DNA of 50,880 bases from a virus, in UHGV virus genome UHGV-0174141; one strand, given 5' to 3'. The position numbers were made by a program. Positions 3,001 to 9,000 of this stretch are shown here, in pieces. Position 1 is the stretch's first letter, and each line of letters starts with the position of its first letter.

Positions 3001-6000
3001 CTTAATGACGTCCCCGCAACGGTTGTCATCTGGCGTATGCACGGAGAATGTCCGAGAGCCTGTATGGTTAAACGCCACCCATTGACCCGGAGTCGCTTTC
3101 TTTGCCGCCACTTTCATGCTCTGCGCCAGTTTGGTGATATCATTCATCAGAGTTATCCTCGCAGCAGTAGTGAGCGCCGTCCGGATCAGTGCTTTTGAAA
3201 CCGCAGATATCACACTCAATTTCGTAACGAGCTTCATCGCAGTCATGGCTTTCTGGCTCGTCGGCTTTGTAATACCCGCCGCAGAGAGTGCAGGTAATGT
3301 CAGGCACATCATCGTAATTCGTGGTACCGGTAATCATTTCATGGCCTCCTCAATCCGTTTGAACTCGATAGCCCAAACCCAAGGGTTGGCATTCAAGCTT
3401 TCGGCGCCATAGATGGATTCCCACAGGCTTCTGAATGAGGACCGATAAAGTTGATTCATTTCGATGTAGTGGGGCATGTCCTCTGACCAAAACTGGAAAA
3501 ACTCATCACGGGCTGCGTAATTCCTAGCGACTACTGTCTGGTCCCATACCTCGGTATGCACTCCCTCGCGTTGTGCGTCCTCTTCGCTGATAGCGTTCAG
3601 GAGCTCAACCCGCACGTCGGTGATTTCCAACAGAATGCGGCTGGCCCAGCGCGGCATGTGGATCGAAGGTCGCCAATCACCCTCTATTCCTTCAATAAGG
3701 TCTGAATACCAGGCAGCAAAATGATATTTAGTGACGCGGGGGTCATCGTAATTAAATGCTCCGTCCTCATCTAAAAAAGATTCATCATCCATCGGAGAAT
3801 AAACATCGCCATCTGCACGGTATGCCACAGCTGGAATACCTTCGAGGTTCACGTCAGACCATGTTTCACGCACCCAGATACGATCGCCTACAGCACCGAA
3901 CGGGCATGAGAAGAGCTTTGAACGCATGTGGTTACCAGTAGCGTTAGATTCCGCCCAGTGATATTTGCCAATGTCACCACGCCTAGTAGAGTCAGTGATA
4001 CGCAGCAAGCCAAACTGATCGGATTCCGGCTGTACTTCCATGATCCGCCGTGTCTGCGTTTTCCGGCCATCGATGATGGCCCTCACCATATCGGCGTTAA
4101 ATATCATTCCGCGCTCAGTCATTCCAGGCCTCCAGCTCGTTCTCGATCTCTTCGTCGATTTCGTCGTTAGTCGCGTCTTCGTCCAAGTAGTCACGCGCCT
4201 CTTTCAGGTATTGTTCATGGCGCTCCCGATACCAGGCCGAAAATTCTGGTGTCCAGCCATTCGGTTCGCCGTCATAGTCAACCTTGGCGTTGCGTTCAGC
4301 CATGTTCTCGACCATGCTGTAAGCTGTGGTGAGCGCTGCCTCGCGGATAAATCCACGTAGATCACGTTTACGCCAATACGGATTCACCTTTGAGTCGCAG
4401 AGAGGTTTAAACTCAACTTCCCAGCGGCGGATGCAACGTGCGTTCAGTGATTTACTCATGCTGTCACCCATTCAATAACCATGCAGATCCCCCAGGTTAC
4501 GACGAAAACAGCGACCCAACCGGCAATTTCGATCACAGCTGCGAACCAGAGCAGGGCGCGCCGGCTGTAATTTTCAGGTTCAAAGTTCATTGCGCCTCCC
4601 CAAGCACCCAGCGCAGAGCCTCGGCATATTCGCCGCTGGCATCTTCGAGGGCTTTTGTAATTTCCTTCCGTGATTTGATACGCGGCTTTGCTTCACCAAG
4701 AACCTGGCGCTGCCGCCGGGCTTTTTCATGGCCCGTGATGCCGGCGGTCGCTGTCTCAATCTGTTTGACCTTCTCCCGTTGCTCTTCGGGTTTAAGCGAT
4801 GCCAGCTGACGCGCCTGGGTAACGGTAATTGTGCCAGCCTCTACCGCTTCCCGGACGGCCTGGGTAGCATCGAGGAGGGAGAGCGTTGCTCGAACGGTCT
4901 GAACGCTGCAGCCAAACAATACCGCAATGTCGTCCTCATCGAGCCCGCGGTCGAGCGCATCTGACATTTTTTTAGCCCGGCCCAGCGGTGTATCAGGTCG
5001 GCGAATTTCGTTTTCACTGACCATGTATTTAGCCATCTGATTTGCTGATCCGCGCTTAACGACTCCAGGTACAAGCAGTGGGTCTTTGCCTTCTTTCAGA
5101 CGGAGTTTATTTGCCTCCAGGGTATGTTTAACGCGCTGACGGCCAACAACTACGCAGGTGAGCCCCAATTCGGGGTCTTTCCAGACGATGATCGGCTCCA
5201 GTACACCGAGCTCCGCAATGTTCAGTACCATCCCTTCGTCGATCGGCAGATGGACCCGCTCATCGTAGAGCGGGTGAGTTTTGTCGGTAATCAGATGCAG
5301 GTGTTCAGGTTCAAACGTTAAAACGTTCGTCTTGCCGCTGGCGCCGTACACGTCGATCGAGTTTTTAGCCATGGTTTTTAACCCCATTCATGCCTGCCAG
5401 CACTGCTGCCTGCGCAGTGTTTTGGTCCATTGCTTCGGTAAGGGCGATAAACGTAACATCCAGCCGTGAAGCGATATTGCGCATTAACTCTGCTTTTTCC
5501 GGTGGTAGATCGGGTGCCGCAGCGTAAGCTGCAGCGACCAGTTCTTTAACTTTCATATGTGCCATTAGCGCCGCTCCATCAGCTGGTGGAAGCGGTTCAT
5601 GAACATCCCGTAGGCCTGGCCTGGGCGAACCGGATTAATAACGAATTGATCCGTCGGAATAATGCCTTCGAGCATGGGCCAAACAGTGCCGTCGTCGATC
5701 TCAAAGTCACGACGTTCGCTGGCCAACATCACCAGGTCGGCATATTTAACGGTCTGGTGCTGCTCAGCCGGCAGGCCGAATTTCTCACGTATTGCATCAT
5801 CAACCCGAATCTCCATTGCGCGATAGTCAGGTAAGAGCTGCTTAAGCGGAGCCGGAATATCCTGAAGGTAAGCCTCGGCAGCATCGTGGAGAAGTGCCTC
5901 AAGTGCGAACTCCTGCGGTACGAGCAGGCTGGATAAAACGCTGTGCTGTCCGACGCTGTAGAACTCTGGCAGGTGGCCGGCAAATCGGCAGATATGCGAG

Positions 6001-9000
6001 AGGGCGGTGGCAATATCCTCGATCTCGATCGCGTCTTGCTGGATGTCGAGATAATTAAAGTGTTTACCCGAAAGGGTTTGAATAAAGCTCATTATTTTCT
6101 CCATACTTTACGCCTGCACAGCGCTGTTTTTTGGGTGTAGGAATCCCTCGCCAGGTGGCGATTAATTACAGGATTACGCTTTAATAAATCCCCTCAACGA
6201 CGGGGATTTAATGGAGAGCAATCAGGCCTTGAAGTTGCCGATAAAGGTTTCTACCGGCTTGCCGTCGAACTTGCCAACCAGCAGATCACGGAACTCATTG
6301 GCGATCGCTTCTTCCAGGGCTTCCAGCTGGACGATACGCAGGACGAATACCGGATCGCTACTTTTGAGCAGGCTATTGCGAAGACTGAAACGACGTTCGC
6401 CCAGGCCCTCATAGGGTACACACTTAAACTCAAACGCTACCGGCATAACCTCTTTACTGCTGGCTTCAATACTTTGCATCAACGATTTCTTACCGCTAAA
6501 GTCACTATCTTCATGGTCGGCTTGAGTTGCCTGTTGGATAGTGACGCGGCGGACAGCTTGCGCAGCCTGGGCGATCGTCATCGTATTGCCGCCAGCATCA
6601 AAGGCCAGCAGATAATCGCTCCAGTCTTCGAGCCACTCAGCGATTTGCTTCTGATTAAGGTGATCGCCGTTGATCGCCAGTAACGCGCGGAAGGGCGCTG
6701 TTTTCTTTAGCTTGATCGAGGCGACGTTATCAGCATGACCAGGGTTGTCCAACGTGCCGATATTGAAGATAGAACGAGCCAGCATGTTATCGGCATCAAT
6801 AAAGCAACGTGCTTTTTCTTCTTCCCGGGCATAAGCGACAGAATAGCGAACGAAATCATCAATGCTGGTCGTGTCCATGGCACCGCGGAAACGGAAACGC
6901 TCAAGAGAATAGCGCTCCAGGCTTTCAACACTGGTATTTTGAGGTAGCAGGGCGGTCGGGCAGGCCAGACCGTGGATATCGTTCAGGTGATACCCGGAAA
7001 GCACGAGGTCTTTAACTTGCTGAAAAGTACCGCTGTCTAACTGAGACATAAAAATTCCTTATTAACTGATTAGCGAAGTGGTATCAGTGAATTTGTACGT
7101 GCGGTTCACTGAGCCGCTTTAAGCTTTCCGTCCACCGTGCCGGTGATACCGAAGAGTTGCCCCTGATCCTCTTGCAGGATTGTGAGCTTGCCACCTTTGT
7201 TAACCCACATTGGTGTTTCGGTGGTGTCCTCCTCCGACGCTTTGCCGCGGGGAGTTGGGGTGCTGTAGTTCAGCTTGTGCTTAATCTTGACGCGCTTCTC
7301 TTCAACAGAGTTGCCCATACGCTCAAAATCAAAGGTGAGGACAACCTTGCCTTTGTTGCCGTTGTTCAGAACGCCGAGCGCGGTGGTATTAAGAGCCGCC
7401 GCAATCTTGTTCATGAATACGCCGGCGTCCAGTTCACCCAGGAAATCGGGCACTACTGTCATGCGATCATTACTCATGGTTTTACCCTCTCGAAAGGCGG
7501 CTGCCACCGCCGGGAATTTCTCCGTACACAACACAGAAGAGCACCTGCGGTTAGGACGCCGCCCGGGTGGATTGGGTAATGAGCCCGTCGCCCGGTGATG
7601 CTCTTGTGTATTGTGTAAAAAGGGCGGTTATCCATCAGAACGTTATCCTCTTCCTCCTTTGGATAGTGGAAAACTGGATAACCGCCAAGACTACACACAG
7701 CACAGTTAACTAGGTTGTGGCGGTGGTGCCTCCACCTGCCGGGTTAAGCCATAACCGGCGACGTACACTGCCCGGAAACGCATTCATTGAACGGGGTTGG
7801 CTCGTCACGTGCGCATAGCCGCAATTACCACAACGAAGAGAGCACTGCCGGTGTCCGAATCGAACGGACCTTTTCCCTGCCCATCACCAGATATAGAACT
7901 ATCCTGGCGTCTGGAATCGAACCAGACTCTGTGCCTTGCTCGTCAATGCCCTCATCGTTGTGCGCTGTGGTGACGGGATTTGAACCCGCATAACGTCCGG
8001 CCGGCCGCATGAGATAACCTGTGTTGCGAACATTGGTTAGTGCTCAACTCCCCACATAAGGGGCGCTCTATCCATTTGAGCTACACCACAACGGTAAGAG
8101 CACTGCCGCCACCCCTTGCGGGATAACCCGTCTATCTGCCTGGCGGTAGGGCGTTTCCTGGCATCTTCAGTACTCTTTCCTGTTGTGTCCCGGACTCTTC
8201 CCGGGGGTCACACCTTTTCGCCGCGCTGGTGGGGCGCACGTCGTGCCTGAAACACTTGGCTTGCACATTCCAGTTGTCCGGATAGCGCATGGAACTTCAA
8301 GGGAACCATCCGGGCTGCTAACGCTGCATGTGCCATACAACGGTTGTGAATATTGCCGTTCACAACTGGAAGCGCACTCCTTCAGTTACAAACCGATCCC
8401 CACGACCGATGGAAGATGGAATGCGCTTTCATGTTGTTTACGATTCATCTACCCCGGTCCGGCGGCGCCACCTCGCCGGGGCAGATGCAAAGGATCGTTA
8501 CGCGATCATTCGGCTTGTTGGTATGGCCGGAAGTATCAAGTCCCGACATCGCGGATTCTGCTTCTCCGCCCCGATTTCACCCCCGCTATTGTTTAGCGCG
8601 CAAACCGAGAAAATCGCCTTCAACGCTGTCGGCTTTCGCCATGTTCGATCAGGAATCTTCGGGCGGGGCGCCGGCGACCAACCGGCACAACCCCTACAGT
8701 ATTAATCCAGGCTTACTGGACCCCCGACGCCGTGGGCTAAACGGCTGCTGTATGTCGGGTGAGTTTCTGTTGCTGGTGGTCAATCCAGCTCCGCAACCCC
8801 TCCCGAAGACACCTGTTTCAAATCAAAACTTCAAATTACGCACCAGAGGGGCTGCCGTTGAGCCGCCTGACATTTGAACTTTGATACGGTTTACTGATGG
8901 TTTGCTACGTTCTTCGCCAGTAAAGCTATTGAATGTACACAGCCCCAGAACTAAACGAGGGACGCCGCGTAAAATTACAATTCCTCCTGCTTTTGGTAGC

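Follow-up and report, generated by a model that had tools for sequence, protein, structure and literature searches.

The DNA stretch of 50,880 nucleotides that was analysed here as a whole (the window; UHGV virus genome UHGV-0174141) is a lambdoid prophage of the Klebsiella michiganensis/oxytoca group, and appears to be full-length. Its leftward early region, which occupies the minus strand of positions 1-9809, has a typical lambdoid layout. Between the tyrosine integrase gene and the cI-like repressor gene, downstream of a pL-like match, it carries homologues of the Escherichia coli K-12 genes yfdP, yfdQ (DUF2303) and yfdR (HD-domain phosphohydrolase), followed by a short open reading frame (ORF) of 66 amino acids (aa) and by a gene for a ParB-like protein (Table 1). 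The YfdQ protein of the window is 100% identical to a protein of K. michiganensis, and 96-99% identical to many proteins from K. oxytoca, K. pneumoniae and Raoultella.

A preliminary description of this sequence had noted ParB-like, HD-domain and DUF2303 genes clustered in an early-left operon at 4587-7049. All three genes were found on the minus strand with exactly these boundaries, and their location between the integrase and the cI-like repressor, downstream of the pL-like match, bears out the assignment to the early-left operon; the extent given was too narrow, however, since the module reaches yfdP, and the 66-aa ORF had gone unmentioned. The start of yfdP was placed at the ATG at 7477, giving a protein of 123 aa like its homologues. 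Promoter-like sites were no commoner in the scan than in shuffled sequence, and the pL call is a positional inference.

Table 1. Features of the early-left region of UHGV-0174141 (positions are those of the window).
Feature	Position	Strand	Size, match or remark
Tyrosine integrase	1-1179		Lambda-type arm-binding and catalytic domains
Several small ORFs	Between integrase and Ead/Ea22 fusion gene	-	
Fusion of Ead/Ea22-like N-terminal region and dATP/dGTP pyrophosphohydrolase domain	1918-3312	-	464 aa; PF04447, 2.2e-39
PHROG 874 protein	3334-4194	-	286 aa; N-terminus MIFNADMVRAIIDGRKTQTRR
Acidic protein, ParB-side mosaic block	4115-4471	-	118 aa; PHROG 6675, 3.1e-67; isoelectric point (pI) 4.6
44-aa ORF, often after ParB-like gene	4456-4590	-	
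ParB-like gene	4587-5387	-	266 aa; PF17762 (HTH_ParB), 7.5e-13; PHROG 1033 'ParB-like partition protein', 1.3e-79
66-aa ORF between ParB-like gene and yfdR	5365-5565	-	PHROG 12248, 1.3e-36
yfdR homologue, HD-domain phosphohydrolase	5565-6104	-	179 aa; PHROG 318 'deoxyribonucleoside 5' monophosphate phosphatase', 3.2e-95
yfdQ homologue, DUF2303	6222-7049	-	275 aa; PF10065, 8.6e-64; PHROG 210, 3.2e-100
yfdP homologue, first gene of module	7106-7477	-	123 aa
ORF-poor stretch between yfdP and cI-like gene	7535-9176	-	1.6 kb
Candidate pL promoter, TTGACT-16-TAATAT	9079-9106	-	Consensus match only
Terminator-like hairpin, 3' of cI-like gene	9170-9151	-	
cI-like S24 repressor	9177-9809	-	

Counterparts of the operon and its mosaic structure

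The yfd genes of the window were compared with the CPS-53 (KplE1) region of E. coli K-12 MG1655. Aligned over the full length of each protein by pairwise BLASTP, the two sets of sequences are 59% (YfdP), 56% (YfdQ) and 65% (YfdR) identical, and when the CPS-53 proteins from YfdP to TorI were searched against the window with tblastn, only YfdP, YfdQ and YfdR matched, colinear and in the same order and orientation. As far as gene identities are concerned, it is near certain that these genes are a Klebsiella prophage copy of the yfdP-yfdQ-yfdR cluster already known from CPS-53. The resemblance to the yfdQ-yfdR neighbourhood of CPS-53, which the preliminary description had pointed out, is thus confirmed by synteny and reaches yfdP too; it does not hold for the ParB-like gene, which belongs to a separate mosaic module. 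No match in the window was found for YfdS, YfdT, YpdJ and TorI (tblastn with the K-12 proteins, E ≤ 0.01), and the ParB-like protein displays no similarity to YfdS (DUF551). Whereas CPS-53, a decayed remnant, goes on from yfdR to yfdS, yfdT, ypdJ and torI, the window continues with the 66-aa ORF and the ParB-like block. A non-coding gap separates yfdQ from yfdR (6105-6221), having a length of ~117 bp in the window versus ~127 bp in K-12 CPS-53; elsewhere in the operon, most genes directly adjoin or overlap their neighbours.

Published work already describes the cluster as a module common in lambdoid early-left operons, here beside a common orphan ParB. A 2025 survey of lambdoid early-left operons describes LLS gp37-39, ST64B gp35-37 and genes of phiNP as homologous to 'yfbR/yfdR, yfdQ and yfdP', the first of these homologues being listed as a putative 5'-nucleotide phosphatase and yfdQ and yfdP as genes without known function (PMC12315714). 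The present prophage is one more instance, in Klebsiella, of a cluster catalogued in lambdoid phages of E. coli, Salmonella and Citrobacter. That the functions are poorly defined, as had been stated beforehand, agrees with this survey and with our searches, in which Pfam, NCBIfam, PHROG and PADLOC gave YfdQ and YfdP no characterised function, and in which no profile assigned different, well-characterised functions to the clustered genes. PADLOC, whose library covers defence and not anti-defence, returned nothing meaningful for eight proteins of the operon.

The region 4115-7477 is composed of two independent mosaic blocks, one comprising yfdP-yfdQ-yfdR and the 66-aa ORF, and the other the ParB-like gene and two small ORFs, because different sets of phages match each half and because the ParB-like gene is seldom found beside yfdPQR. 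With megablast, positions ~5514-7700 (yfdR-yfdQ-yfdP) matched Klebsiella phage Kp4866-6 at 88.7%, and Citrobacter phiNP, Escherichia LLS, Flotzy and Eeyore, and Salmonella ST64B at 77-80%; the early-left operons of LLS, ST64B and phiNP carry no orphan ParB-like block at the position where the window has one. Positions ~4404-5390 (the ParB-like gene and its small neighbours) matched Klebsiella and E. coli prophages of another set, for example KpF5, in which the ParB-like gene is located beside RdgC and the yfd genes are absent. The matches to phages of the ParB type stop at ~5372-5390 and those to phages of the yfdPQR type start at ~5514-5540, and the junction lies inside or next to the 66-aa ORF, at ~5390-5514.

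Gene neighbourhoods were further compared among 303 DUF2303-encoding loci (enterobacterial, Pseudomonas-, Xanthomonas-, Halomonas- and Vibrio-type sequences taken from IMG/VR and from phages in GenBank), with the neighbours classified by iterated profile searches; as some contigs entered the set under two or more locus identifiers, counts at the cluster level are the safer ones. The ParB-like gene was found near yfdQ in 19 of the 303 loci, all belonging to the window's own clade, and in one of 16 clusters at 70% identity; among eligible loci it accompanied yfdQ in 17/78 of that clade and in no other clade. Seen from the ParB side, the 80 closest relatives of the ParB-like protein (at least 92% identity) are encoded beside yfdPQR in only 13 cases, and in 27 cases no other gene is shared with the operon. 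The 44-aa ORF adjoins the ParB-like gene in 38 of these 80 loci and is present as a hypothetical coding sequence at the same position in Klebsiella phage KpF5, while the PHROG 6675 gene co-occurs with the ParB-like gene in 11 of the 80 loci, and in KpF5. The 66-aa ORF is found downstream of yfdR in 81 of the 303 loci and travels with it. The ParB-like block would have come to lie beside the yfd block through mosaic recombination, and not through a shared function.

The yfdP-yfdQ pair and YfdR

The conserved unit of the module is yfdP-yfdQ, not yfdQ-yfdR, with yfdR as a facultative third member. A YfdP homologue is encoded adjacent to yfdQ and on the same strand in 298 of the 303 loci (upstream in 286), corresponding to 17/17 clusters at 70% identity and 50/50 clusters at 90%. 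A YfdR homologue follows downstream of yfdQ in 144 loci and in 6/17 clusters at 70% identity. The three-gene cluster that had originally been noted is comprised of one gene of a conserved pair (yfdQ), a frequent third gene (yfdR) and an unrelated mobile neighbour (the ParB-like gene). Of the genes beyond the repressor, those of the pair are usually the first of appreciable size. The pair comes after the repressor in Halomonas phage H4907, without yfdR and followed by unrelated genes, and in Xanthomonas phage MET23-P3 it also lacks yfdR and is followed by genes for a weak DUF1351-like protein, Erf, an exonuclease and SSB. The yfdP homologue upstream in MET23-P3 carries the annotation 'translation elongation factor', apparently in error.

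A shared ancestry of YfdP and YfdQ, considered since a Halomonas record labels both proteins as DUF2303, was rejected, with an hhalign probability of 0.1 for their homology. A natural 'Rosetta stone' fusion was likewise rejected: in the protein P0154, encoded on a single Logan contig of 1662 bp, YfdP residues 1-52 are fused to YfdQ from a PGHGD motif onward, and this is most likely a deletion or an assembly chimera.

The YfdQ protein of the window matches PF10065 (DUF2303) with 215.8 bits (cut-off 26.6) over residues 31-273 of 275. All residues that are invariant in an alignment of 117 sequences, window YfdQ included, are present (R53, G56, T60, F66, N96, G104, H105, D107, W143 and G271), and the motifs RFRFRG (51-56), PGHAD (103-107) and EDW (141-143) account for 10 of the 15 invariant or nearly invariant residues of the family in these stretches, most invariant residues of YfdQ being located in the three motifs. 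A profile search of 1.84 billion representatives recovered 2880 DUF2303 clusters at E ≤ 0.001; that the best 150 of these are all 249-292 aa long and match nearly the whole profile in one stretch suggests a single-domain family.

A YfdQ homologue is represented in the Protein Data Bank (PDB) by a single entry, 9o7m, with 36 chains named 'YfdQ Protein' that are 99% identical to a protein of Xanthomonas phage MET23-P3 and ~40% identical to the YfdQ of the window. This protein of a CP2/MET23-P3-like phage belongs to the same DUF2303 family, has nearly the same length (274 versus 275 aa), aligns end to end (E 1.1e-37), and is also preceded by a yfdP homologue, but unlike in the window no yfdR follows. 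Because the homologue was deposited as a 36-chain entry, YfdQ probably works as a large homo-oligomer, with YfdP as its partner. Neither a publication for 9O7M nor relevant literature on YfdP and PF27127 was found in the library that was searched. An AlphaFold2 model of the window YfdQ, made with the 117-sequence alignment (predicted local distance difference test score 85.3), displays a beta-alpha-beta-beta-beta unit, a helical middle part and a C-terminal beta-beta-beta-alpha-beta unit. Foldseek with this model found nothing at E ≤ 0.001, 9o7m being outside the fold libraries, and AlphaFold models of YfdQ and YfdP gave no informative fold relatives. DUF2303 and YfdP constitute a widespread phage pair of uncharacterised function, now with a solved YfdQ structure, and YfdP is worth co-expressing when this structure is interpreted or experiments are designed.

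The HD motif of YfdR is intact (H54...H73 D74...D123), as seen in an alignment with PDB 2gz4 (Atu1052) and K-12 YfdR, and the protein matches the HD protein Atu1052 at 1.1e-10. K-12 YfdR is annotated as a 5'-deoxynucleotidase, and E. coli YfbR, an HD-domain 5'-deoxynucleotidase, shares with YfdR the HD fold and the H...HD...D metal-binding motif. The YfbR-like profile PF12917 scored only 20 bits, below its gathering cut-off of 25.9, and NCBIfam gave no match for YfdR; judged by the Pfam threshold, the window protein, with its 65% identity to K-12 YfdR and its PHROG 318 match, is a YfdR orthologue and not a member of the YfbR family. The 464-aa Ead/Ea22 fusion protein represents a second nucleotide-hydrolysing function in the operon of YfdR.

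In K-12, YfdR has far weaker nucleotide affinities than YfbR, and its distinct activity is the binding of DnaA (PMC4776307). Noguchi and Katayama (2016) reported that yfdQ-yfdR in multicopy, together with yfdS or yfdT, inhibits initiation at oriC, that purified YfdR binds DnaA in a manner dependent on Phe46 and moderately inhibits DiaA-DnaA and DnaB-DnaA binding, and that the suppression of over-initiation needs yfdQ and yfdR, but not yfdP (PMC4776307). By analogy, the module of the prophage would be expressed from pL early after induction, and YfdR would bind domain I of host DnaA early in lytic growth, in competition with DiaA and DnaB, so that YfdR and YfdQ together damp initiation at oriC and free replication resources for the phage; the weak phosphatase activity on deoxynucleoside monophosphates (dNMPs), known from K-12 YfdR, may be secondary.

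The reading proposed here, which combines two mosaic blocks, the damping of DnaA, a YfdQ oligomer and an orphan ParB-like regulator or clamp, is as a whole given a probability of about 0.5. By homology with K-12 YfdR, the damping of DnaA-dependent host replication is the role that we consider most likely, yet the DnaA mechanism is put forward for this phage only tentatively, as somewhat less probable than not. Several points weigh against it. The mechanism is based on multicopy over-expression in K-12, for which the authors allow an artefact, and a yfdQRST deletion gave no replication phenotype (PMC4776307). Suppression in K-12 also needed yfdS or yfdT, both of which are missing from this prophage; yfdR is absent from most yfdPQ clades, and in the K-12 assay (PMC4776307) yfdP, the gene that universally accompanies yfdQ, could be dispensed with. 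Because of these last two points, DnaA inhibition is excluded as the core function of the P-Q pair. The question posed by DUF2303 is narrowed accordingly, in that the conserved unit is yfdP-yfdQ and the DnaA binding of YfdR lies outside its core function.

A wider reading of the pair, which we regard as unlikely, is that yfdP-yfdQ would be a widespread early module of two tightly coupled proteins, shared by temperate phages of Gammaproteobacteria and some of their lytic phages (~2900 DUF2303 clusters at 50% identity). YfdQ would form a large homo-oligomer with a fold unseen in other solved structures, this assembly would serve a hitherto undescribed takeover of host DNA replication or repair, and YfdR, the DnaA binder, would be only one of several interchangeable downstream effectors. 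If true, DUF2303 would represent machinery of a new class by which phages take over their hosts.

Recombination genes, Chi sites and alternative roles of the yfd module

The preliminary description had recognised no exo/bet or erf-type recombinase in the operon, and none was found. Nine left-operon proteins, a set that did not include all ORFs below ~60 aa, gave no match to Redbeta/RecT, Erf, Sak, exonuclease, Gam, Abc2 or SSB with Pfam and PHROG, and among ten early-right proteins scanned with Pfam only RusA (15975-16373) is related to recombination. The window contains 24 Chi octamers (GCTGGTGG), versus 2.1 expected and a maximum of 6 in any shuffle, and 21 of the 24 are located on the plus strand. 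The LLS functional type of lambdoid phages has no Rec module and many oriented Chi sites, LLS itself possessing 23, of which 20 are oriented (PMC12315714, Genome Res 2025). Taking as criteria the absence of exo, single-strand annealing protein, anti-RecBCD and SSB genes from the early-left operon, and 12-18 or more Chi sites with a strong orientation bias, the window matches this LLS/ST64B class (no Rec module, Chi-rich). The prophage is thereby placed in a recently defined class of lambdoid phages that are without recombination genes of their own and have accumulated Chi to exploit host RecBCD. It differs from LLS by RusA in its early-right region, the nin region of LLS having no recombination-related gene (PMC12315714), and by its Klebsiella host; the survey makes no mention of Klebsiella. 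Because a Red/Erf-type module is lacking and the genome is rich in Chi, the phage probably relies on host RecBCD and RecA.

These observations bear on the possibility that YfdP-YfdQ, alone or together with YfdR, forms a module for recombination or repair that has escaped recognition. The pair sits in an operon where Rec modules normally lie and in which no recombinase is recognisable; the 36 YfdQ chains of 9o7m recall ring- or filament-forming annealing proteins, the YfdQ model has a beta-beta-beta-alpha unit at residues 205-261, and in MET23-P3 the pair is located just upstream of the Erf, exonuclease and SSB genes. This same phage, however, has an Erf of its own, and ArgO145 carries the yfd cluster together with a complete Rec module, for which reason its genes are unlikely to be hidden recombinases (PMC12315714). 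Because cluster and Rec modules co-occur in both phages, the one is no substitute for the other; furthermore, YfdQ is acidic (pI 5.15), and the Chi-rich genome already explains recombination through host RecBCD. We consider a recombination or repair role quite unlikely.

Two other roles compete with the DnaA proposal. According to one of them, the substrates of YfdR would be dNMPs or else a signalling or modified nucleotide, YfdQ-YfdP would act as a sponge or an inhibitor of host immunity, and the ParB-fold protein would counter a DNA-targeting defence. The place of YfdR among the HD phosphohydrolases, the 5'-deoxynucleotidase annotation of its K-12 orthologue and the dATP/dGTP pyrophosphohydrolase domain encoded in the same operon are all consistent with such a role. 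Large homo-oligomers encoded by promoter-proximal early genes are, moreover, typical of phage anti-defence sponges. An anti-defence action of prophage ParB-fold proteins has also been speculated upon (PMC12704722). This role is nevertheless rather unlikely, given that the sequence and length of the P-Q proteins are conserved across very different hosts, unlike the usual fast-evolving and host-specific inhibitors, that there is no experimental link to any defence system, and that PADLOC, with its library of defence and not anti-defence systems, gave no match. The other role is that of a cargo beneficial to the lysogen, in which the genes would be expressed from the prophage and improve the tolerance of the host to oxidative, acid or DNA-damage stress instead of serving the lytic cycle. 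Deletion of CPS-53, yfdQ or yfdS increased the sensitivity to H2O2, and loss of yfdQ that to methyl methanesulfonate (Wang et al. 2010 and Rooney et al. 2009, as cited in PMC4776307), and yfdPQR has survived in CPS-53 despite the heavy decay of this remnant. The phenotypes described are weak, however, and the genes lie inside a repressor-controlled leftward early operon, and are not organised like a moron with its own promoter and terminator. The pair is also found in Xanthomonas CP2-like phages, and the ~12.7 kb of MET23-P3 that were examined have no annotated repressor or integrase. A cargo function is accordingly judged distinctly improbable.

The orphan ParB-like protein and other features of the prophage

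The ParB-like protein aligns with Thermus thermophilus Spo0J (PDB 1vz0; phmmer 1.9e-7) and with Noc from residue 56 to ~227, a span that comprises the N-terminal ParB-CTPase region and the helix-turn-helix (HTH) domain, and it matches PF17762 (HTH_ParB) with 48.9 bits against a cut-off of 22.6. Box I reads NIAELGVLEPIIV. Box II, GRQRVKH (82-88) versus GERRxRA, has kept the central arginine R85, and box III, ENEIRR (125-130) versus ENLQR, has kept E125, N126 and R129. The arrangement of a ParB-type N-terminal domain followed by a ParB HTH is that of the orphan ParB-CTPase group of Noc, KorB and VirB, and the divergent orphan ParB group is prophage-borne and, like the window protein, has neither a ParA-binding motif nor a neighbouring parA. 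A 2025 PNAS survey found orphan ParB-CTPase proteins to be enriched on prophages and plasmids and to bind various nucleoside triphosphates (NTPs) (PMC12704722). Based on its sequence, the protein is most likely an NTP-gated DNA-binding regulator or clamp, and neither a partition protein nor a nuclease; it would recognise DNA in a sequence-specific manner, in the way of KorB, Noc and VirB, and would have a role of its own, unrelated to that of the yfd genes. We infer that it binds both NTPs and DNA. Some features fit this interpretation poorly: Q and K are present in box II where two arginines are expected, TIGR00180 scored 29.6 bits, below its cut-off of 58.45, and PF02195, the Pfam ParB N-terminal domain, did not match even at E ≤ 10. 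Moreover, only ~40 residues follow the HTH, which makes a canonical C-terminal dimerisation domain doubtful.

That the protein is a genuine partition protein, or a nuclease, is very improbable. In favour of these ideas are names: relatives of the protein go under 'ParB-like partition protein' or 'ParB/RepB/Spo0J family partition protein' in PHROG and RefSeq, and 'ParB-like nuclease' is an old name for the N-terminal ParB domain of Pfam. Of the term 'ParB-like nuclease' used in the preliminary description, the first part stands (PF17762, PHROG 1033), whereas the second reflects merely the old name of a Pfam domain that the protein does not match, and no HNH or other nuclease domain is present in it; none of the results points to nuclease activity. 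As to partition, the element integrates by means of a tyrosine integrase, no ParA-type Walker motif (KGGxGK[ST]) was found in any frame of the 50.9-kb window, and the ParA-binding motif [LFI]G[KR]G[LFI] is absent from the ParB-like protein, in addition to the TIGR00180 and PF02195 results. No parS-like repeats were detected in the window, either as a perfect palindrome of at least 12 bp occurring twice or as a related pair of near-palindromic 16-mers, a result compatible with a single or non-palindromic site. The lambdoid early-left ParB relatives are, furthermore, few, very distant and probably changed in function (PMC12315714).

Two further ideas about the ParB-like gene were considered and rejected. 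The ParB-like activators of phage thymine dioxygenases have no DNA-binding domain, whereas the window protein has kept its HTH. Fusions of ParB-fold and PUA-like domains are common in phages (PMC12704722), but a link between ParB and ASCH was not supported, as the 286-aa PHROG 874 protein showed only a sub-threshold match to ASCH (E 0.07) and its gene is carried by only 6/80 of the ParB-like loci.

The ORF-poor stretch between yfdP and the cI-like gene, which is comparable to an unannotated gap of ~1 kb in phage phiNP, contains a 70-aa ORF (8823-9035) starting with MNSAQRRKAYRK, which is arginine-rich and reminiscent of N-type antiterminators. It also contains a tRNA-like sequence on the minus strand (7965-8090; Rfam RF00005, 40 bits versus a gathering score of 29), in which the acceptor, D and T arms are intact and 68 nt replace the anticodon arm and the variable loop; ARAGORN called no tRNA at this site. 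The sequence is located within a segment of ~210 bp (~7969-8179). Because Klebsiella phage Kp4866-6, otherwise 98% identical, and other relatives do not have this segment, it resembles a small insertion into the pL leader. No exact copies of the tRNA-like element were found in the 303 related loci or in one-genome-per-species contigs.

The early-right region (10139-21370, plus strand) encodes, according to Pfam, a CII-like protein, an O-like replication protein, a protein with a LexA DNA-binding domain (15475-15978), a KilA-N protein, a DUF968/HNH protein, a Q antiterminator and an N6/N4 DNA methylase (20291-21370). Inspection by eye suggests DNA methyltransferases for two more genes, at 12577-13530 and 13523-15505. 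A full-length match to the gammaproteobacterial small RNA STnc100 (RF02076) is present on the plus strand at 22444-22641, in the late or lysis-proximal part, with 99 bits against a gathering score of 47.

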